Positions 9,093 to 23,711 of a stretch of 24,000 bases of DNA are shown here, one piece after another. A model generated the notes under the pieces. That model saw nothing but the letters and a program-made list of their open reading frames with translations, ran no database searches and was not told the DNA's origin. The translations under genes were made by a program, and so were the position numbers. The DNA lies in contig NZ_BAABEO010000025.1 of assembly GCF_039540195.1 (NCBI RefSeq), positions 83,631 through 107,630 on the forward strand, given 5' to 3'. Numbering within the stretch: the first letter of the stretch is position 1; every line of letters starts with the position of its first letter. The DNA comes from Arthrobacter ginkgonis. Its GTDB lineage: Bacteria; Actinomycetota; Actinomycetes; Actinomycetales; Micrococcaceae.

Positions 9093-10475
9093 CTACGGGG
9101 CTGCCGTCACGGCGTCCCCGGCGGCGGCCCCGCTGTTTTCGTCGCGGTTGCCTTCGTCCCGGCCCTTCCGTGCTGCCTGCGCAGCGGCCAGCGGAACGAA
9201 GAGGAAGGCCAGGGCGGCAAAGATTCCCGGGATGGCAAAGAAGAGGAAGTTCATCTGCACCGGGAGGCTGAGCGTCAGCAGGACGCCACCGAAGGTCGGT
9301 CCGACGATCGCCCCCAGCCGCCCGACGCCGGAGGCCAGCCCGATCGCCGTCGAGCGCATGAAGGACGGGTAGTACTGGGAGACGAAGGAGTAGGAAATGT
9401 TCTGGGCGCCCATGGTGCACGCACCGGTGATGAACACCAGCACCATCAGGATCGCCATGTTGTTGCCGAATCCCAGCAGCGTCAGCGAGACCGCCGAGAT
9501 CGCGAACATCGGGACGAGCACCTTCTTCACGCCCCACTTGTCGGCGAGCTTGCCCAGCACCAGGGTGCCGGCGATGGCTCCGACGTTCAGGACGATCATG
9601 AAGGTCAGGCTGGAGCCCAGGGCGTATCCGGCCTCCACCATCAGCTTGGGCAGCCAGGTCGAGACGCCGTTGATCATCAACAGGCACATGAAGAAGGCGA
9701 TCCAGATCATGATCGTTCCGAGCGCGCGGCGGTTCTTGAACAGGGCGCCCACCGGGCTACCCGCTTCCTTCTCCTGCAGGCCGGTGAATTCCGCGTCCGC
9801 CGAAAGGGCTGCGGTGGGGTTCACCTTGACCAGCGCCGCACGCAACTCACCGAGCCGCCCCTTCTCCAGGAGCATGGCCGGGGAGTCGACGAAGTACCTC
9901 ATCATGAACGGCAGGAACAGCAGGGGAAGGATGGCGACCCAGTAGACGGCATGCCAGCCGAAGGCGGGAAGCAGCAGCATGGAGACGAAGGCGGCCAGGA
10001 TGCCGCCCACGGAGAAGAAGCACATGACGACGGCGACCAGGGTGTTGGCGCGCCCCCTCGGTGCGTAATCGGTCAGCATCGCGATGAGGCAGGGCAGGAT
10101 GCCGCCGATGCCCAGACCTCCCAGGAAGCGCAGGACGGAGAACTCCAGGGGTCCCGGCGCGAAGCCGCACAGGGCCGAGGCGAGGGAAAAGAGGATGACG
10201 CTGGCCGTGAGGATCCTCTTCCTGCCGAACCGGTCCGCGAGGATTCCGAAGAGGATGGCGCCAACCATCATCCCGAAGATGCCGTAGCTGCCGATGGCCC
10301 CGGCCTGAATGGGATCCAGCGACCATTCCTTCATCAGCACCGGCAGGACCGATCCGTAAACGACCAGGTCATACATGTCGAAAGTGATGATGAAGCAGGC
10401 CCAGAACAGCATTCCGGCGTGGAAGCGGCCGAAACCCGCCCCGCCGATGAAATCCCTGATGTTGATGGTTGTCAT
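9093..10475 (-). CDS. MFS transporter, aromatic acid/H+ symporter (AAHS)-like
   Basis: 460-aa ORF with about 12 hydrophobic segments. It has the MFS loop 2-3 signature GILADRFGRKRIL and a central hydrophilic loop. Overall it resembles PcaK/BenK/MhpT-type transporters (recall only). Confidence 0.8.
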   Translation of the reverse strand: MTTINIRDFIGGAGFGRFHAGMLFWACFIITFDMYDLVVYGSVLPVLMKEWSLDPIQAGAIGSYGIFGMMVGAILFGILADRFGRKRILTASVILFSLASALCGFAPGPLEFSVLRFLGGLGIGGILPCLIAMLTDYAPRGRANTLVAVVMCFFSVGGILAAFVSMLLLPAFGWHAVYWVAILPLLFLPFMMRYFVDSPAMLLEKGRLGELRAALVKVNPTAALSADAEFTGLQEKEAGSPVGALFKNRRALGTIMIWIAFFMCLLMINGVSTWLPKLMVEAGYALGSSLTFMIVLNVGAIAGTLVLGKLADKWGVKKVLVPMFAISAVSLTLLGFGNNMAILMVLVFITGACTMGAQNISYSFVSQYYPSFMRSTAIGLASGVGRLGAIVGPTFGGVLLTLSLPVQMNFLFFAIPGIFAALAFLFVPLAAAQAARKGRDEGNRDENSGAAAGDAVTAAP

Positions 10476-16507: not shown

Positions 16508-16783
16508 GTGAAGAAGATCGGATTCCTGTCCTTCGGCCACTGGACCGACCACCCGCAGTCCGGCACGCGCAGCGCGTCGGACGCGCTCCTGCAGGCGATC
16601 GACCTCGCGGTCGCGGCCGAGGAGCTCGGCGCGGACGGCGCCTACTTCCGTGTTCACCACTTCGCGCAGCAATACGCCTCCCCGTTCCCGCTGCTCGCCG
16701 CGATCGGGGCACGGACCAGCCGAATCGAGATCGGCACGGGCGTCATCGACATGCGCTACGAGAATTGCAACTCCATGAATTGA
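16508..16783 (+). pseudogene. 5' fragment of an LLM-class (luciferase-like) flavin-dependent oxidoreductase gene, truncated by insertion
   Basis: VKKIGFLSFGHWTDHPQSGTRSASDALLQAIDLAVAAEELGADGAYFRVHHFAQQYASPFPLLAAIGARTSRIEIGTGVIDMRYEN matches the N-terminal roughly 25% of LLM enzymes of about 330-350 aa. After the Asn codon (16763-16765) the frame reads CNSMN-stop, and the integrase gene begins within about 10 nt. Confidence 0.65.
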
Positions 16784-16800
16784 GCTACCTTGGGTAGCGT
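16745..16800. other. Host/element junction (attL-like); crossover inferred near 16765-16768
   Basis: LLM homology by eye ends at ...MRYEN (codon 16763-16765). The element-derived sequence tgcaactccatgaattgagctaccttgggtagcg runs into the integrase start. The exact core dinucleotide cannot be determined from one junction. Confidence 0.4.
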
Positions 16801-18352
16801 GACCGACAACCGCCTCCGCGCTGTGCTGTACCTCAGATTGTCGGCTGTGTCCGACGACTCCACCAGCCTCGATCGTCAGGAAAGAGACCTGCGCGAGCAC
16901 GCCGGGCGCAAGGGCTGGCACGTCACCGAGGTCCTCGTAGATGAAGGCATCTCCGGCAGGAAAGCCCGCGCCAAGGCCGCCGAGGCCGTCCGTATGATCG
17001 CCGACGACGAGGCCGACGTCCTGGCCGTGTGGAAGTTGGACCGCTTTACAAGAATGGGCTATGACGGGCTCGGCGCGCTCTCCCAGGCCCTCGCCACCCG
17101 CGCCGAGGGCGCCAAGGCTGGCCGGTGCATCCCGGCGCTATTCGTCGCCCTGCATGACGGCCTCAATTCCAATCAAGCCGCGTTCCGCATGATCGCGGGC
17201 GTATTGAGCGAGGTTGCCAGGAGCGAGGCCGAGAACGCCGCCGCGCGCATTGCTAACTCGATCGAGCACCGCAAGACACGGACCCATAAATTCGCGGGAG
17301 GGTCCGCCGTGCCGCTCGGCTACCGCTCTGTCCCGGCGCCGGACGGTACGGGGCGCATCCTCGTACACGACGACGAGGAGGTCGCCCTTATCCGCGACGT
17401 GGCGGCGCGCATCCTCTCCAATATCGAGTCGCTTACCGGCATCGCCGCCGACCTGAACAAGCGCGGCGTGCCGACGTCCAGGTCGCTCGCGCGCCGCGCG
17501 CTCCGCCAGGGGTTGCCCGCCGAGGGCCTGGATACTGGCAAGTGGACTGTGTCGACGTTCCGCAACGTCTGGACGTCCGACGTGCTCCTCGGCCGCGTCG
17601 TGCATCGTGGCAAGTTCGTTTCCGACGCCGCCGGAATCCCCTTGGCCGTATGGCCGCCGATCCTGGACCGCTCCACCCTGGACGCTCTCCGCGTCCGCAT
17701 GAACTGGAAGCCGCGCAAGGATCAACGCGGCCCGCTGGGGCTCCCGCCCGCGCCGAAACCGAAGGTCCAACCTACCCGCAAGCGTGCCGCGCGGATCTTG
17801 TCGTCGGTCGCGTTCTGTGGGCTCTGCGACTCGCGCCTGTACGTGACGACGACGTCGGGCACACCTATCTACAAGTGCGGGTCTAGCTGGAATGGTGAGA
17901 AATGCCCTTCGCCGTCGATCACCGCCGACGCCCTGGACGAGTACGTCGCCGCCCGCGTCCTGGCCGTCGCCGGAGAGTGGCCCGAAATGGCTACCGAGAC
18001 GATCGCCAGCGGCGGCGCCCCCGAGGCGACCCTCGCCGAGATCGAGGCTCTCCTCCGCGAGGCGTCCGTCGCCATGACGGAGGACGACGCCCAGGTGCCG
18101 GAACTCCTGGAGCGGATCGCCGGACTCAAGGCCCGCCGTGCCGACCTCCGCGCCCGCCCCGTGACCGTCGAGACCGTAAGCAAGCCCACCGGCCGCACGC
18201 TGGCCGAGGCATGGGACGCCGACGAGGGCACCGCCTGGCGCCGTTCTGTCCTCCTATGGGCGATCGACCATGTCCGCGTCGGTCCGCGTACGCCCGGCAT
18301 GGGCACCCGCGCATTCGACGAGGACCGCGTCGCGATCTACTGGAACTCCTGA
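16790..18352 (+). CDS. int: Large serine recombinase (Bxb1/phiC31-type serine integrase)
   Basis: N-terminal resolvase domain with a catalytic Ser context AVLYLRLSAVSDDSTSLDRQ, and VWKLDRFTR. It also has a recombinase domain, zinc ribbon FCGLCDSRLYV...YKCGSSWNGEKCPS, a coiled-coil segment (EIEALLRE...LLERIAGLKARRADLRAR) and a C-terminal WRRSVLLWAIDHVRV. The architecture parallels Bxb1 gp35 as I recall it. The start is TTG 16790 or GTG 16799. Confidence 0.9.
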   Translation: MGSVTDNRLRAVLYLRLSAVSDDSTSLDRQERDLREHAGRKGWHVTEVLVDEGISGRKARAKAAEAVRMIADDEADVLAVWKLDRFTRMGYDGLGALSQALATRAEGAKAGRCIPALFVALHDGLNSNQAAFRMIAGVLSEVARSEAENAAARIANSIEHRKTRTHKFAGGSAVPLGYRSVPAPDGTGRILVHDDEEVALIRDVAARILSNIESLTGIAADLNKRGVPTSRSLARRALRQGLPAEGLDTGKWTVSTFRNVWTSDVLLGRVVHRGKFVSDAAGIPLAVWPPILDRSTLDALRVRMNWKPRKDQRGPLGLPPAPKPKVQPTRKRAARILSSVAFCGLCDSRLYVTTTSGTPIYKCGSSWNGEKCPSPSITADALDEYVAARVLAVAGEWPEMATETIASGGAPEATLAEIEALLREASVAMTEDDAQVPELLERIAGLKARRADLRARPVTVETVSKPTGRTLAEAWDADEGTAWRRSVLLWAIDHVRVGPRTPGMGTRAFDEDRVAIYWNS

Positions 18353-18376
18353 GAGCCGCCCGGCGGCCCCGTACGG

Positions 18377-18406
18377 AAGCCCCGGACACATTCCTGGCCG
18401 GGGCTT
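18377..18406 (+). terminator. Stem-loop after the integrase gene
   Basis: AAGCCCCGG (18377-18385) / CCGGGGCTT (18398-18406) with a 12-nt loop, followed by TCCTATTCCC. It lies 25 nt after the stop. Confidence 0.45.
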
Positions 18407-18983
18407 TCCTATTCCCGCACACGGGCGCCCAGAGCCGCCCAGGAGACCGCCCGGCACCGCGCGGCCTAGGCGTTCCGCGCCCGTCCTCCGCGCTTCTAGG
18501 TCCAGTCCCGCGCCTGGATCCTGGCGCCGACCCGAGGAGCCCCAGACGCCCCGCTGAGGCCCTCCTCTTGTCTCCGGCGGCTGGCGCCGGTCCTGTCCGC
18601 GCGAGGCCCGGAGGTGGCCACGTGGCGACCTTGGATCCCTGCGCCGTGGCCAGGCTGGCGGGCGGCGCCCGCCTCGGCGAGATGCCAGCCCGTTTACACG
18701 CCGAGGACAACGCGGGAGGAGGCGGCCGTCGCCCCCGTGCCAGTTTCCCCGCCAGGAGGCGCCGCCCCAGGATCCGCCCGTGCCCGGCGGGCCTGAAGGC
18801 TCTGGCCCGGTTCCGAGGCCGCCAGGCGGCCGCCCAGGGCGCCGGAGGAGGTGGCGGCGGTTCGCCCTCGCGGGGAGAGGGCGGCCCGCCCCGTGCCCGC
18901 GTCCGTGCCAGCGCGGGAGACGACGGCCGGAGGCGCCGGAGAGGTCGTTTTCCCGACCCTGGACGCCTGCGTCTGAGCCTAAA

Positions 18984-19092
18984 GGTGGTGGAAGTGGTGA
19001 AAGTGGAGGTACTTCTCTATCCGTTCTCAAGTAAAGCCATTACTTGAGTAGAGATATAGAGAGACCACCACTTTCGCCACTTTCACCACTTC
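18984..19092. repeat. Module 1: inverted arrays of 9-bp GTGGNGNNN units flanking an AT-rich core with a central hairpin
   Basis: Left array is GGTGGTGGAAGTGGTGAAAGTGGAGGT (18984-19010). The right array, as its reverse complement, is GAAGTGGTGAAAGTGGCGAAAGTGGTGG (19092-19065). The identical 16-mer GAAGTGGTGAAAGTGG lies at 18991-19006 and inverted at 19077-19092. TCTCTAT/ATAGAGA is also inverted. The central hairpin is CTCAAGTAA (19026-19034) / TTACTTGAG (19040-19048) with a 5-nt loop. Confidence 0.8.
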
Positions 19093-19223
19093 GGGCCGTC
19101 ACCGGCCGCCCTGGCCCGCTCCCCGCGCGATCGTGACCGGCCGCACGCCCCGGCCGTGGACAGTTTCGGCGCTCCTGGCGGTCTTCTCTCTTGTAAGCAC
19201 CCGACCACGACCCCGGCCCGGTC

Positions 19224-19387
19224 GGATCCGCATTTAACGGACCCTGGCCGTCTACTCAGACGGGAGAGACCCGCGCATTTGTAACACCCCCGGCCGTCTA
19301 CTCAGACGGGAGAGATCCGCGCCCGCGTCCTGTACGCCCGGCCGTCTACTCCAGTAGGAAAGATCCGCGCCGCGTGCGCCTGGATCC
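19224..19387 (+). repeat. Tandem direct repeat, period 46-48 bp, about 3 copies, each with a conserved 31-bp core containing a 6-bp hairpin
   Basis: GGCCGTCTACTCAGACGGGAGAGACCCGCGC begins at 19246 and GGCCGTCTACTCAGACGGGAGAGATCCGCGC at 19292. A degenerate copy GGCCGTCTACTCCAGTAGGAAAGATCCGCGC begins at 19340. CCGTCT-ACTC-AGACGG is self-complementary. Flanking (GA)TCCGC(GC)ATTTRTAAC is also repeated before copies 1 and 2. Confidence 0.85.
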
Positions 19388-19404
19388 TCCCCCCCACCAA
19401 GTTT

Positions 19405-19610
19405 GAACCGTCCGCGCCCGCGCACTCTCCGGGGCGCGGCGGTTCGCACCCCGTCCGAGCGGCCTAAGCCCCCGCTCGGCGCTGGCCCTCGTGGCCGGTC
19501 TTTTCATGGATGGGACCCGGTAGCCCCGCCGCCGTAAACCCGGCGGGGCTACTGCCCTCCTGTCCGTGAGCCCTCACCCGCCGCCGTACCCTCGGCGGCA
19601 TTTTCATTTG
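19405..19610 (+). ncRNA. Structured untranslated region: four or five consecutive GC-rich hairpins, the last terminator-like (candidate leader/attenuator or small RNA)
   Basis: H1 at 19405-19445 pairs GAACCG(T)CCGCGCCC with GGGCGCGGCGGTTC. H2 at 19455-19479 pairs CCGAGCGG with CCGCTCGG. A weak stem with TCTTTTC lies at 19482-19505. H3 at 19520-19552 pairs GTAGCCCCGCCG with CGGCGGGGCTAC (12 bp, perfect). H4 at 19580-19599 pairs GCCGCCG with CGGCGGC and is followed by ATTTTCATTTG (to 19610). No ORF covers the region. Whether this is an RNA, and on which strand, is inferred. Confidence 0.3.
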
Positions 19611-19648
19611 CCAAACAAAGTAAGCCAACGCCCGAAAGGAGGCCGCCC

Positions 19649-19864
19649 ATGGCCGACCATGTCTGTCTCATTTGTCACCGCCCGTTCACTGGCCAGGCCA
19701 GCGCGGAAACGTGCTCTACAGCCTGCCGAGTCACCCGCTCCCGGCGGCGCAAGGAGGCCGAGCGCCGGAAGGCCCTGGACCTCCTGGCCCGCATGGCCAC
19801 CGCCCGCGACCCGGCCGTCGTCGAGTCGCTCCGGCGCGAGGCCGAGCGCCTCACCCGCGACTAG
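19649..19864 (+). CDS. Small zinc-ribbon-like basic protein (71 aa), function unknown
   Basis: Strong RBS GAAAGGAGG sits 6 nt before the ATG. The sequence MADHVCLICHRPFTGQASAETCSTACRVTRSRRRKEAERRKALDLL has a CxxC-x12-CxxxC arrangement followed by an Arg/Lys-rich helix. Confidence 0.7.
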   Translation: MADHVCLICHRPFTGQASAETCSTACRVTRSRRRKEAERRKALDLLARMATARDPAVVESLRREAERLTRD

Positions 19865-19870
19865 CCCGCG

Positions 19871-19944
19871 AGTGGTGAAAGTGGCGTTTGTGGTCTTTCT
19901 TCTGTTCGTTTCTACAGTTCTGCTCTCTCTAGCCACACCACACC
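19871..19944. repeat. Module 2: a second GTGG-unit array, pyrimidine/AT-rich core and CCAC-rich inverted partner
   Basis: AGTGGTGAAAGTGGCG (19871-19886) is identical to the reverse complement of 19075-19090 in module 1. It continues TTTGTGGTCTTTCTTCTGTTCGTTTCTACAGTTCTGCTCTCTCTA, then GCCACACCACACC (19932-19944). It starts 7 nt after the zinc-ribbon gene stop. Confidence 0.7.
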
Positions 19945-20171
19945 CCCCCAAACTCACCCCCCACACGCTGACTAGGCGAAATGCGCCTATTTGCCCGCCT
20001 ACGCATGGTGCGTGTGGTGAGTAGCCGGCCCCTATTTACAGCGGCCGGCAATTCACGCGGGGAGAGCCTCCGGCCCTTACGCCCGGAGGGCGTTTGTGTC
20101 CCTCCAACTCACGCCCGCAAGTACCGCCCCACACCGGGGCACCGCCCCCACCCCTTGAAAGGACCCCCACC

Positions 20172-21029
20172 ATGCCTAGCCCCGTCCGCCTGACCGCCTG
20201 GACCGCCAACCCGTCCACCTCCACCAACCCGCTCCCGTCGCCGTCGACGGCCCGCCGTTCCGGCGGCTGGCCGATTGGTCTCCTGTCCGAACTCCTGGCC
20301 CCGGAGATCGCCCGGAGGGGCGTCACGTACAAGCGTGGCCAGGGGTTCCGCCAGTTCGGCGAGACCCTGGACGACTACGCCGTCGCGACGATTGCGCGCA
20401 CGGTCCTAACGATCGCGGCCGAGCACCTGGACCCGCACCAGTCCCGTTATGAGTCCCTGGAGCGTGTCCGCGACATGGCCGCCGAGTGGATGGACGAGGC
20501 CCACGCCGAGGCTCACAGCATGATCGACGACTACGAGGAGGCCGAGGCGGTCGCCCAGGCCGCTACGGCGGCGCCTACGTCGTTCTACGCCGCCGCCGTC
20601 GAGGGCATGGAGGCCCGCGACGCGCTGGCCCTGGATCGTGAGACGGCCGCCCGTGTGGCGCCGTTCGATGAGTACGCCGTCGCCTTGTCTCGCACGGCCC
20701 GCGACCTGAAACAGTCCGGCCACGCCCGCGCCGCCCTGGCTCGGGATCTGCGTTCGCTCCTGCCCGCGCCGGTTGCCGAGGCGGACACCTCCGGGGACGA
20801 CGCGGCCGCGTGGCTGTCCCAGTTCGACGAGGTCGACAAGGTCCGCCAGGCCGACCTCGCCCGCGAGTACGACCTGGACGGCGCGCCCGGCGGCCTGTCC
20901 GGTTCCGAGTTGCGCGCCCTGGCGGCGACCCGTTGGGGGATGCCGCGCGCGTTGCGTGGTTACCCGACGTTCCGGCCCGCGCGTGCGGCCGACCGTACCG
21001 CCCGCGAGACCGTCGGCGCCGCCAATTGA
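20172..21029 (+). CDS. Hypothetical protein (285 aa), Ala/Asp/Glu-rich, no recognised domain
   Basis: ATG 20172 is preceded by TTGAAAGGACCCCCACC, inside track ORF 20094..21029. Composition is coding-like, unlike the overlapping Arg/Pro-rich shadow frames. Confidence 0.65.
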   Translation: MPSPVRLTAWTANPSTSTNPLPSPSTARRSGGWPIGLLSELLAPEIARRGVTYKRGQGFRQFGETLDDYAVATIARTVLTIAAEHLDPHQSRYESLERVRDMAAEWMDEAHAEAHSMIDDYEEAEAVAQAATAAPTSFYAAAVEGMEARDALALDRETAARVAPFDEYAVALSRTARDLKQSGHARAALARDLRSLLPAPVAEADTSGDDAAAWLSQFDEVDKVRQADLAREYDLDGAPGGLSGSELRALAATRWGMPRALRGYPTFRPARAADRTARETVGAAN

Positions 21030-21181: not shown

Positions 21182-21607
21182 ATGAATTTCCGCACCCCGG
21201 ACAACTACGGCCGCCCGATCTACCCGGCCGCCGTTGTCGCCGTTGTCCCTGGCGCCTCCGAGGCCCTGGCCGCTTGGACGGCCGCCACGGACCCGACCGA
21301 GGCCGCCACCCTCCGCGCCGCCCTGGATGACCTGATGGGCGGCCCCGATAACTACGTGGCCCGCACCCGCGCGGCCGCCACGCTGGCCCTGGAGGCCCAG
21401 GCCGACGCCGTCACCGCTTGGCAGGCTCTCCGCACCGCCCTGGCGACCCGCGAGGCCGCCCTCGGCTACGTCGTCCCCGGCCGTACCTGGCGCCTGCCCG
21501 TGGCCCCGCCTGGCGGCGTCGCCGAGGGGGCCGCCCAGGTCGAGCACATGATCGACGCTTTCGTTTCCGGCCTGGACGTTGACGCCCTGGAAATCATCGC
21601 CAACTAG
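21182..21607 (+). CDS. Hypothetical protein (141 aa); short member of a tandem paralog pair
   Basis: ATG is preceded by CCGAAAGGACCCCCACCC. It shares N-terminal G(R/Q)x(I/V)YPA...GAxEALAAW and C-terminal G(L/F)DVDALE blocks with the next ORF. Confidence 0.7.
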   Translation: MNFRTPDNYGRPIYPAAVVAVVPGASEALAAWTAATDPTEAATLRAALDDLMGGPDNYVARTRAAATLALEAQADAVTAWQALRTALATREAALGYVVPGRTWRLPVAPPGGVAEGAAQVEHMIDAFVSGLDVDALEIIAN

Positions 21608-21675
21608 CCCCAACCCCACCCCCGCCATTCGCCGTCCGGCGTCCTGGCACCCCATCCCCGAAAGGACCCCATCCC

Positions 21676-22407
21676 ATGAGTACCCACACCCTCAAGATCA
21701 CCGCCAACGGCCAGCGCGTGTACCCGGCCTGGCTTATCCGCCTCACGTCCGGCGCCGAGGAGGCCCTCGCCGCGTGGGAGGCCTTGGACGCTGAGGCCCG
21801 GACCTACTTCGACGCCGTCCGCGCCGCCCTGCGGGCAAAGAACGAACTCGGCCGCATGGTCGACGGTGAACTCGTCCCCAAGCCCGGTATCCGCGCCGCC
21901 GCGCTTGAGGACGCCCAGGAGGCCGTCCGTCAGGCCGAGGCCGCCCAGGCCGCGCACGCCCGCAAGGTGAGCGCCGCCCGCCGCAAGTTCGACACCCTCA
22001 TGCAGAACCCGTCCGGCCCGGAGGTCCGCCGCAAGGCCGCCGCCGAGTACGCGATCGAACAGCACGCGGAAGTGGCCCGGCTGTGGCCGCTCCTGGCCGC
22101 CGCCCTGGAGGACCGCGACGACGCGCACCGCGTCGCCGGATCGCCGGGCCGCTCTTGGGAGAACACGGCTGGCGTCCCCAGCGGCGGCCGCTTCCATGTC
22201 GTCGGCGAGGCCGAGCGGATCCTCTCCGGTGCTATCGACGGTTTCGACGTCGACGCCCTGGAGCGTGTGGCCGCTGGCGAGGACGTCGCCCCCGCGATCG
22301 AACTGCACCCCGACGAGAGCAACCCCGCCCAGGCAATCAAGAAGGCCGAGGAGAGGCGCGCCGCTAGCCAGGCCGAGGCGGCCCGCTCCCGCGCCGCCGG
22401 TTTTTAG
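21676..22407 (+). CDS. Hypothetical protein (243 aa); long member of the same paralog pair
   Basis: ATG is preceded by CCGAAAGGACCCCATCCC. NGQRVYPAWLIRLTSGAEEALAAWEALD and ILSGAIDGFDVDALERVAAG match the upstream ORF. The central Ala/Arg/Glu-rich helical insert is unique to this copy. Confidence 0.7.
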   Translation: MSTHTLKITANGQRVYPAWLIRLTSGAEEALAAWEALDAEARTYFDAVRAALRAKNELGRMVDGELVPKPGIRAAALEDAQEAVRQAEAAQAAHARKVSAARRKFDTLMQNPSGPEVRRKAAAEYAIEQHAEVARLWPLLAAALEDRDDAHRVAGSPGRSWENTAGVPSGGRFHVVGEAERILSGAIDGFDVDALERVAAGEDVAPAIELHPDESNPAQAIKKAEERRAASQAEAARSRAAGF

Positions 22408-22747: not shown

Positions 22748-23044
22748 GTGCTGGAGACCGGCCGGAGGATGCCGAAGAAAACGCGGGAGCAACGAGCGTA
22801 TGACCGCCGTGTTCGTTCCCGCGTCGAGGGCTTCATGGTCTGCCTCGGCAAGTTCGCCACCGACGCCCACGCGGACGCCGTCCCGCTCGGTCTCCTCGGC
22901 TGGCTCCGCCGCTCCGAGTACCTCGCACTGTCCGAGGCCGAGCGGCTGGAGCACCTCAAGGCCGCCGTCCGCGCTGAGGTGAAGGCCGACGAGGGACCGC
23001 GCCCCGCGCACCCTGACGAGGCCGAGCCCTGGCCCACCTACTAA
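22748..23044 (+). CDS. Hypothetical protein (91-98 aa); short member of a second tandem paralog pair
   Basis: Start is GTG 22748 or ATG 22769. EQRAYDRRVRSRV...FA...A.PLGLL...YLALSEAERLEHLKAAVRAEVKADEGPRPAHPDE aligns with the N-terminal half of the next ORF. Confidence 0.6.
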   Translation: MLETGRRMPKKTREQRAYDRRVRSRVEGFMVCLGKFATDAHADAVPLGLLGWLRRSEYLALSEAERLEHLKAAVRAEVKADEGPRPAHPDEAEPWPTY

Positions 23045-23075
23045 CCCAACTCGTTTACACGAAGGACCCAACCCC

Positions 23076-23711
23076 ATGAACATCGAGACCACCGCCACCG
23101 AGACCAGCAAGCCGAATCACACCCCGGAACAGCGCCGCTATGACCGCGCGGTTTACCGCCGCGTTAAGCGCGGCATGGAGCACAGCGCCAGGTTCGCCGC
23201 CGCCGACGCCGCAACCGCCCCGCTCGCCCTCATGGCGCCCCACTCCCGCGCGGCCTGGCTGGCCCTGGACGAGGCCGCACGCCTGGACCATTTGCGCCAG
23301 GTCCTCCGCGCCCAGGCTAAGGCCGTCATCGGCCCGCGCCCGGAGGACGTCGAGGAGACCGCACCGGCCACCGTCGAGACCACGGCCGCACCGGCCACCG
23401 TCGAGACCACGGCCGCACCGGCCACGCCTGCCCGCCCCTCCGGCCGCCGCCTCGTCGTTGCCTGCATCGGCGGGTGCGGAACCTGGATAGTCGCCACCTC
23501 GGCCCGGCCCGCCGTCGTGCGATGCACGCCCGGCCAGCGCCGCGCCCAGCGCGAGGACCCGACCGGCGCCGCTCCCGTTGAGGCCCGCTCGTCGCACGCC
23601 GCGACCGCCTCGGCCGTCGACTACTCCGCCGCCCGTGCCGAGCGCCCGGCCGCCGCCCAGGGTAGGCGCAAAGCCAAGCGCCGCGCCCGCGCCGCGACCT
23701 GCGGCAAGTAG
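23076..23711 (+). CDS. Hypothetical protein (211 aa); long member of the second paralog pair, with a 9-aa tandem repeat and a Cys-containing basic C-terminal extension
   Basis: ATG is preceded by ACGAAGGACCCAACCCC. EQRRYDRAVYRRV...FAAADAATAPLALM...WLALDEAARLDHLRQVLRAQAKAVIGPRPEDVEE is paralogous to the upstream ORF. It continues with PATVETTAA x2.5, then VVACIGGCGTWIV...VVRCTPGQRR and an RRKAKRRARA tail. Confidence 0.65.
   Translation: MNIETTATETSKPNHTPEQRRYDRAVYRRVKRGMEHSARFAAADAATAPLALMAPHSRAAWLALDEAARLDHLRQVLRAQAKAVIGPRPEDVEETAPATVETTAAPATVETTAAPATPARPSGRRLVVACIGGCGTWIVATSARPAVVRCTPGQRRAQREDPTGAAPVEARSSHAATASAVDYSAARAERPAAAQGRRKAKRRARAATCGK
23361..23428 (+). repeat. In-frame 27-bp tandem repeat, about 2.5 copies
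   Basis: GCACCGGCCACCGTCGAGACCACGGCC occurs at 23361-23387 and identically at 23388-23414, with a partial copy GCACCGGCCACGCC at 23415-23428. Confidence 0.9.

Follow-up and report, generated by a model that had tools for sequence, protein, structure and literature searches.

Among the replication sites described so far, those closest to the locus treated here belong to the satellite P4 and to the SaPI islands. The P4 alpha protein carries a C-terminal winged-helix origin-binding domain (PMC2777425). In the SaPI islands the origin lies just 3′ of rep, the gene of a self-loading SF3-like helicase. The 6–12 iterons of this origin are divided equally between the two sides of an AT-rich centre, with opposed orientations, and are read by the winged helix of the Rep C-terminal domain (CTD); two hexamers probably load there, one per side (PMC9371898). 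Here we describe a locus of similar layout, named module 1, in a 24 kb stretch of DNA from Arthrobacter ginkgonis (the window, meaning the whole stretch that was analysed). The right part of the window is a prophage seated in a luciferase-like gene, kin of the cluster AZ Arthrobacter phages, and module 1 lies downstream of its serine integrase gene (int). From its layout and from the comparison with related phages we consider it probable, though with some reserve, that module 1 serves a temperate siphophage as a replication origin of the iteron type, or as a cis site like the P4 crr, used by a self-loading SF3 primase-helicase.

Anatomy of module 1 and its likeness to P4 and SaPI sites

Module 1 is built from two arrays of three phased 9-bp units of the GTGGTGAAA type, which are inverted with respect to each other and enclose an AT-rich core (Table 1). 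This layout had been proposed in a sequence-only reading of the window, and both the 3 + 3 inverted units and the identical inverted 16-mer (a perfect GAAGTGGTGAAAGTGG with its complement in the opposite arm) were borne out. The core had been put at about 55 bp and 35–40% GC, with a 9-bp hairpin and inverted elements. Its GC content of 37%, compared with 77 and 70% in the flanks, agrees with this, as do the central 9-bp dyad (CTCAAGTAA at 19026–19034 and TTACTTGAG at 19040–19048) and the inverted elements, seen as a CT tract (TTCTCTAT, 19013–19020) and a GA tract (ATAGAGAGA, 19056–19064); the length, however, is 51 bp. As a whole the module forms a 105-bp imperfect palindrome with 50-nt arms that are 80% complementary and a 5-nt loop. 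Folding it as single-stranded DNA gave −35.8 kcal/mol (z = −10.2 relative to shuffles), and folding it as RNA gave −70 kcal/mol for the plus strand (z = −10.9) and −64 kcal/mol for the minus strand. Like SF3 origins, it thus has at least two opposed iterons on each side of the centre, here 3 + 3, and a centre that is AT-rich and easily melted. A reading of the units as DnaA boxes was dropped, as by eye 6 of 9 positions matched.

The units are strongly enriched. At up to two mismatches, GTGGTGAAAGTGG matches the window six times with 0.31 matches expected, a count that none of 100 shuffles reached, and GTGGYGAAA matches four times with 0.15 expected. The phased pattern GTGG-N5-GTGG-N5-GTGG occurs three times (0.36 expected), every time in module 1 or in module 2, a partial copy located less than 1 kb downstream. 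These two modules are the only places in the 24 kb where the motif is found, and the 16.8 kb of host DNA within the window holds no copy. Module 1 is therefore not unique: the window has this second, partial copy, and related phages carry two copies at fixed sites (see below).

The comparison with P4 extends to several levels. By its GenBank annotation, P4 has crr directly 3′ of alpha and beside attP/int, and a further iteron site, ori, at a distance of 4.7 kb. In crr the repeat is TGTTCACA CTGTTCACC, a CT/AT-rich spacer, and then GGTGGTGAAT..GGGTGAAG GGTGAACA; its units, TGTTCAC(A/C) and GGTGGTGAA/GGTGAACA, follow a 9-bp period and stand in both orientations around the spacer. P4 and the modules described here therefore have in common units of 8–9 bp with a period of 9–10 bp, in both orientations and around a CT/AT-rich spacer, as well as two separate iteron-bearing cis sites per genome. 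The core GGTGAA is common to the crr units GGTGGTGAA and GGTGAACA and to GTGGTGAAA of the window, and the position beside int/attP in P4 has its parallel in the position of module 1 after int. The initiators are also alike: P4 alpha, whose C-terminal domain is a Pox_D5 match spanning residues 670–768, and the primase-helicase of the related phages have the same domain order of Toprim, D5_N, SF3/DUF5906 and Pox_D5 CTD. On the other hand, P4 is an enterobacterial satellite with a tyrosine integrase, whereas the present element is an actinobacterial temperate siphophage with a serine integrase. The arrays in the window are more regular (3 + 3) and form the 105-bp imperfect palindrome with its central dyad, whereas the P4 crr is a tandem 120-bp duplication and the P4 ori has type 2 repeats besides its type 1 iterons. 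The actinophage modules, moreover, are known from sequence alone.

With the SaPI origins, module 1 shares short iterons that are halved around an AT-rich centre and opposed, and specificity differs between islands (PMC9371898), as the iteron sequence does between the phages here. Unlike the SaPI iterons of 5–6 bp, the units here are 9 bp long, and there are two copies per phage genome. The SaPI ori also lies directly 3′ of rep, whereas the actinophage modules lie 5–9 kb from the helicase gene; modules of the GTGG type from other phyla are adjacent to theirs. Lambda ori and the oriV of RepA-type plasmids likewise place repeated initiator-binding sites beside an AT-rich unwinding element. Here, in contrast, the AT-rich region stands between inverted arrays, an arrangement to be expected if self-loading helicases meet head to head.

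A two-site module family and its match to the primase-helicase

We compared module 1 with two sites in related phages: site A, between the small hypothetical gene gp26 and the Cas4 exonuclease gene, and site B, after the serine integrase gene. Modules of the same design were found at both sites in VResidence, Reedo, Amyev, Tweety19, Phives and the Curtobacterium phage Mysterium, and also in the Streptomyces phage phiC31 (L212; 21663–21760 and 40440–40540). For Tbone, the copy after int alone was read. In VResidence and Tbone, the gap of ∼260 bp after int carries CATGACG-type inverted arrays around an AT-rich core with a CT tract. As all eight of these phages hold a module of the same design after int, and module 1 has the same position, we assign module 1 to this actinophage family as its site-B member in the window. 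The assignment is in good agreement with its anatomy, as the cores of the related modules likewise have CT/GA tracts and a small nnnAAG..CTTnnn dyad at the centre (CTCAAG..CTTGAG in contig L139, TCTCTAAGA..CTAGAGATAGA in Mysterium), and module 1 shows the inverted arrays, the CT/GA tract, the small central dyad and the AT-rich core alike.

The architecture is constant among the phages and the iteron unit varies, with ATGACG, (A)GTGACG, AGTGAnn, TGTAG and GGTGG types. An exact 16-mer scan of viral contigs returned 58 loci, which were chance single matches apart from L044 and L051. The 44-kb viral contig L044/L150 carries GTGGTGAA-type (GTGG-type) units nearly identical to those of the window in a module at site A, flanked by homologs of gp26 (32% identity) and Cas4 (55%). 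Each module of the AZ phages is followed by an element of the form TGAG(C/T)AG-N∼29-TGTCCC, a ribosome-binding site and the first gene of an operon (for example L121:21600–21660 and L119:6350–6420). The middle part of this element varies by phage group, and the element may be a promoter for a phage sigma-like protein. In one further viral contig, L177, two identical ATGTAG-type modules stand in tandem at 9582–9673 and 9806–9897, 224 bp apart, which recalls the tandem 120-bp repeats of the P4 crr.

The protein that best matches the iterons is the primase-helicase. In the related phages the protein annotated as DNA primase/helicase has Toprim, D5_N and DUF5906 (SF3) domains and a Pox_D5-like C-terminal part; 13 of 23 CTDs match Pfam Pox_D5 and two of the 23 match a Cdc6 winged helix, and among solved structures SaPI5 PriRep (7OLA) is the best relative of the AZ enzyme. 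A D5_N/SF3 helicase with a Pox_D5-type CTD is found in all sequenced relatives, including the GTGG-type contigs L150 and L208. In all, this helicase is present in 233 phage records. In Tbone, this enzyme co-varies with the iterons. The phage shares its genus with Amyev and Phives and is similar to them over the whole genome, yet its iterons are of the ATGACG type seen in VResidence and Reedo, whereas those of Amyev and Phives are AGTGA. In its primase-helicase only a C-terminal stretch of ∼80 residues switches, with an identity of 0.89–0.94 to the ATGACG phages and 0.49–0.55 to its sisters. At the DNA level this swap is a discrete patch at 28.6–28.9 kb, and the adjacent Pol I gene is unswapped. 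Relative to its sisters, Tbone (L120/L127) has three VResidence/Reedo-like patches: this CTD, the middle of a sigma-like gene (32.5–32.8 kb) and the site-B module (37.3 kb).

To widen the comparison, 21 loci were added via a primase-helicase alignment and 59 via a fragment of the L044 Cas4 gene, along with contigs of close relatives of the L150 enzyme. The wing and the iterons could both be read in 29 genomes, and in 29/29 the predicted wing tip of the CTD partitions exactly with the iteron class as assigned by the analyst. The wing KRKT[M/A/Q] goes with ATGAC iterons (7/7), a wing ending in N (...N) with GTGAC (9/9) and the GT/ST-GGK class with AGTGA (8/8). The wing R[RH]R[VA]A goes with TGTAG in all three cases, which represent three lineages only 45–74% identical to VResidence, and KRA[SA]K goes with GGTGG in both L150 and L208, whose enzymes are 70% identical and have a CTD helix of the form xEIVTRRKFF. 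The phiC31 protein gp9a (wing GKKKTNTG, iterons with GTGAC) agrees with this rule. In a partial Mantel test, iteron similarity correlated with CTD similarity when the helicase core was controlled for (r = 0.30, p = 0.002).

Other phage proteins were considered as readers of the iterons. The integrase and gp26 were rejected, as their similarity does not track iteron type; gp26 also showed no real similarity to the phiC31 repressor. Region 4 of the sigma-like protein was rejected as well, its helix-turn-helix being untied to iteron type (Phives equals Tbone, and Reedo equals Amyev). Because this helix-turn-helix ignores iteron type, we suspect another partner for the sigma-like protein, which may match the variable part of the promoter-like element instead of the iterons.

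To extend the search to unrelated elements, 185,579 genomes were scanned for the pattern, together with metagenomes. The scan recovered single-copy modules in which arms of iterated GTGG(N)G(A/G)AA units enclose AT-rich cores. Modules of the GTGG type lie 0–125 bp 3′ of D5-family helicase genes in Tahibacter, Faecalimonas, a metagenome-assembled genome (MAG) of the Acidobacteriota and two kinds of metagenome contig (L110, L099, L088, L215, L223), all directly 3′ of the helicase gene. In the first three the module is only a few bp from the 3′ end of a D5_N/DUF5906/Pox_D5 helicase gene, and in the metagenomes a GTGGTGAAAGTGGTGAAAGTGGTG-armed module was found ∼100 bp past each of two further D5-family genes. 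Further GTGG-type modules follow a DUF3987 protein gene, an AAA_25 helicase gene and an unannotated gene of 550 aa. One Arthrobacter genome (L069) has a serine integrase gene followed by a GTGG-type module, which is the order seen in the window. If our reading of the modules is right, P4/SaPI-type origins with GGTGAA-like iterons would recur across bacterial phyla.

The same scan returned other items. In Demequina mangrovi (L067, 3195–3310) a GTGGTGAAGTGGTGAAAGTG-armed module stands at the edge of a short capsid/scaffold gene block beside host genes, with no terminase or portal gene in view; this locus may be a prophage remnant or a satellite-like element. The scan matches are single-copy in the Demequina and Arthrobacter genomes, as opposed to many-copy in MAGs of the Steroidobacteraceae. 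There, and in MAGs of the Alcaligenaceae, a MITE/REP-like element, GGTGCCGGGTGGGGAAAGTGGGGAAA...(inverted), occurs in many copies (L059–L063, L068, L070, L073, L074 and others), and a GCCTGCTAG-flanked repeat family of the Acidobacteriota was caught by the same pattern. Both are unrelated to the phage modules.

Proposed origin function and competing explanations

That the iterons and the meltable AT-rich centre make up a replication origin was the first suggestion of the sequence-only reading, and it is supported by the position-conserved family, by the co-variation of iterons and CTD and by the layout of P4 crr/ori and the SaPI origins. We propose that a P4-family primase-helicase, with Toprim, D5_N, SF3 and a Pox_D5-like CTD of the winged-helix type, would be encoded elsewhere in the prophage and that its CTD would bind the six iterons of the GTGGTGAAA type, each of 9 bp. 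Given the inverted arrays, a pair of helicase rings would assemble face to face across the 51-bp AT-rich core, melt it and load themselves. The primase domain would then prime, and the phage DNA polymerase I would extend. In the way that P4 has ori plus crr, the second cis site would be provided by module 2 and by another copy that we predict upstream of the Cas4 exonuclease gene. From these comparisons we infer that the iterons are bound, that the core melts and the origin fires, and that this prophage encodes the cognate enzyme; the likely binder of the iterons is the CTD of a primase-helicase encoded outside the window. The 71-aa zinc-ribbon protein encoded between modules 1 and 2, which had been put forward as the first candidate binder, is not linked to the module by anything we found.

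Several observations weigh against this proposal. The 7.2 kb of visible prophage contain no primase-helicase gene, and two protein searches with primase-helicases gave no A. ginkgonis copy among the best 120 matches listed, so that the cognate initiator of this prophage is only assumed. In AZ-like phages the modules stand at the heads of two operons, 5–9 kb from the helicase gene. The placement 3′ of the initiator gene, as in the SaPI ori and the P4 crr, is thus absent both from these phages and from the window, where the module follows int. The P4 ori likewise lies apart from its initiator gene. The iteron classes behind the 29-genome partition are the analyst's own assignments, and the reverse partial Mantel test, of helicase core and iterons with the CTD controlled for, was also significant (r = 0.33, p = 0.005); shared ancestry accounts for part of the association between iterons and CTD. 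The gene for the sigma-factor-like protein co-varies loosely with iteron type too, and was swapped in Tbone as a separate patch. At the modules, the GC skew curves of three complete phages ran on without an inflection.

A different explanation, possible though in our view unlikely, is that the modules are transcriptional control regions. The arrays would then be operators for the sigma-like protein or for an immunity repressor and would gate early promoters, at site A for the DNA-metabolism operon and at site B for the right-arm operon, the promoter itself being either TATAAG-like boxes in the core or the downstream TGAGCA..TGTCCC element. Both sites do lie directly before gene blocks, with the conserved promoter-like element, a ribosome-binding site and a start codon at fixed distance, and the units look like −35 hexamers (xTGACx). 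The sigma-like gene clusters partly by iteron type and forms a swapped patch of its own in Tbone, but this clustering is diffuse compared with the clean partition by the wing of the primase-helicase, and the region-4 helix-turn-helix does not follow iteron type. In unrelated elements, like modules follow helicase genes without the start of an operon. Module 1 itself is followed not by a gene but by ∼560 bp of non-coding DNA with terminator-like hairpins, and a scan for sigma-70-type consensus promoters found nothing at it. As to immunity, phiC31 has a separate family of a 12-bp palindrome, ACTCACGTGAGT, in 15 intergenic copies across the genome, which we take to be the CIR operators of the c repressor (CIR-like sites are 12–18 bp long). 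Like the modules, these are inverted repeats in intergenic DNA of a related phage, but they are short, whereas the iteron modules are ∼100 bp long, differ in sequence and occur only twice per genome in the relatives, unlike an array of short palindromes spread over many promoters. The module of the window groups with the iteron modules, and the distinct 15-copy family argues against an immunity-operator role for them. In the other direction, on the side of an operator role, cluster AZ has no identified repressor (bioRxiv 10.1101/2025.05.26.655371). The sequence-only reading had held a simple operator to be unnatural here; the origin is indeed favoured, but the operon-head position and the adjacent conserved promoter-like element speak for keeping some regulatory role in consideration.

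The stability of the predicted folds, on both strands as RNA and as single-stranded DNA, could instead point to a hairpin function: a terminator or insulator that separates int from the right-arm genes, an RNase III site, or a single-strand initiation signal. Two of four arm mismatches are compatible with G-U pairing on the plus strand, and Rfam gave weak matches to long-hairpin precursor families; these stayed below threshold and mirror the hairpin shape alone. We regard such a function as very unlikely. Three phased direct repeats per arm are more than a hairpin requires, and from phage to phage the arms differ by entire iteron class, in parallel with a protein domain, rather than by compensatory pairs. 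The G+C-rich stem and T run of an intrinsic terminator are also lacking, and the terminator scan was silent at module 1, flagging only 19481, 19580 and 20073.

Other kinds of site fit still less well. The P1 parS centromere also has repeats around a bendable AT-rich centre, and multi-copy MITE/REP elements that look like the modules exist in the Steroidobacteraceae and Alcaligenaceae MAGs. Even so, we think it extremely unlikely that module 1 is a parS-like centromere, a TraB clt locus, a pac/cos site, an attachment site or a host REP/MITE repeat. The annotations of the complete relatives, phages that integrate by a serine integrase, list no ParA/ParB or TraB gene, and the open reading frames (ORFs) of the visible prophage have no ParA/ParB-type Pfam match. 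In the relatives, both module sites are distant from the terminase genes and from the ends of the genome. Identity with attP was rejected because the junction with host DNA, at ∼16.78 kb, is 2.2 kb away and upstream of int. The absence of the motif from the host DNA of the window and its single-copy occurrence in the actinobacterial genomes matched by the scan argue against a host repeat. Thus the partition-centromere, clt and REP readings, which had been named as options, find no support.

Finally, the origin reading could be combined with a promoter function. Each module would then be an origin-promoter specificity cassette, in which an iteron origin matched to the CTD is joined to a promoter matched to the sigma factor, as a three-way lock that would determine immunity or incompatibility in temperate phages lacking an identifiable repressor. 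The variable −10-like part of the promoter would be matched to sigma region 2 and the conserved TGAGCA to the conserved region 4, so that replication and early/middle transcription would be keyed to one phage type, with patches exchanged discontiguously as in Tbone. This picture, details included, we hold to be doubtful.

Prophage setting and significance

The luciferase-like monooxygenase gene has a GTG start at 16508 and is broken off near 16785, after ∼90 codons, with 75 of 314 profile positions left. A serine recombinase gene follows directly, and therefore all DNA to the right is inserted element. The window is thus split into 16.8 kb of host DNA and 7.2 kb of prophage, which continues beyond the window end (24000). 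The integrase equals a protein of A. ginkgonis, and its homologs, at 35–61% identity, are the serine integrases of phages of Arthrobacter (cluster AZ), Curtobacterium and Microbacterium. A Pfam/PHROGs search of the ORFs right of the integrase gave no significant match, searches of viral contigs with the integrase and with a 285-aa protein of the window found zero relatives, and blastn of 18300–20200 against plasmid and phage collections gave no match.

Table 1. Positions of the prophage junction, the integrase gene, modules 1 and 2 and the promoter-like element in the window.
Feature	Position	Strand	Remarks
Prophage-host junction (attL), approximate	16755–16790	.	Inside the truncated luciferase-like monooxygenase gene; ∼15–45 bp from the integrase start codon
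Large serine integrase (recombinase) of the prophage	16799–18352	+	Directly after the truncated luciferase-like gene
Module 1, left iteron array GTGGTGGAA GTGGTGAAA GTGGAGGTA	18985–19011	+	Three units, 9-bp period
Module 1, span between the perfect inverted 16-mers GAAGTGGTGAAAGTGG (18991–19006) and CCACTTTCACCACTTC (19077–19092)	18991–19092	.	
Module 1, AT-rich core, proposed unwinding element	19012–19062	.	51 bp, 37% GC
Module 1, right iteron array GTGGTGAAA GTGGCGAAA GTGGTGGTC	19063–19089	-	Three inverted units
Module 2, partial asymmetric copy: GTGGTGAAA GTGGCGTTT GTGGTCTTT, CT-rich core, weak right arm CCACACCACACC	19872–19944	+	Core 34 bp, 44% GC
Putative promoter-like bipartite element GTGAGTAG ... 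TGTGTCCC	20017–20102	+	Past module 2, then a gene

Module 2 is followed by the promoter-like element, the counterpart in the window of the TGAG(C/T)AG-N∼29-TGTCCC element of the AZ phages, and then by a gene; it corresponds to the promoter-proximal part of site B in the relatives. The zinc-ribbon ORF between the modules (71 aa, 19649–19864) has a CxxC...CxxxC pattern and a basic helical tail. Its one PHROG match, a weak one (E = 0.0014), is to a family of HNH endonucleases, and it has no counterpart in AZ phages at a tblastn E ≤ 1e-3.

The remaining DNA of the visible prophage shows several further features. From the integrase stop to module 1 (18353–18984) there are 632 bp of 77% GC without codon periodicity or family match; the counterpart in related AZ phages is only ∼50 bp long. 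Three tandem 35-nt repeats with a period of 46–48 bp, each with a small hairpin CCGTCTACTCAGACGG, lie at 19242–19370, and the RNA fold of this region (19225–19420) was no better than that of shuffles. Two plus-strand terminator-like hairpins follow at 19481–19599. Farther right, two adjacent paralogous gene pairs of unassigned function occupy 21182–22407 and 22748–23711, the last gene of which contains an exact 27-bp tandem duplication (23359–23412). The sequence GAAAGGACCCC occurs three times (20157, 21166 and 21660), each time shortly before the ATG of consecutive genes, and matches the 13-bp start-associated motif GGGAAAGGACCCC of Microbacterium cluster EF phages (PMC7302621).

We found no paper that maps a replication origin in the cluster AZ Arthrobacter phages or their Microbacterium relatives. 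For phiC31, too, we know of no mapped origin. The modules are not described in the comparative paper on cluster AZ (bioRxiv 10.1101/2025.05.26.655371) nor in the Microbacterium phage survey. Judged by its design, the module family would belong to the known P4/SaPI-type class of origins, and we found no paper describing the actinophage modules. If the proposal is true, they would be the cis-acting origins of a large and widely used group of phages that includes phiC31, and a simple rule would tie the CTD wing of the primase-helicase to the iteron sequence. This would offer a way to approach replication specificity and, possibly, incompatibility among co-infecting phages and prophages.

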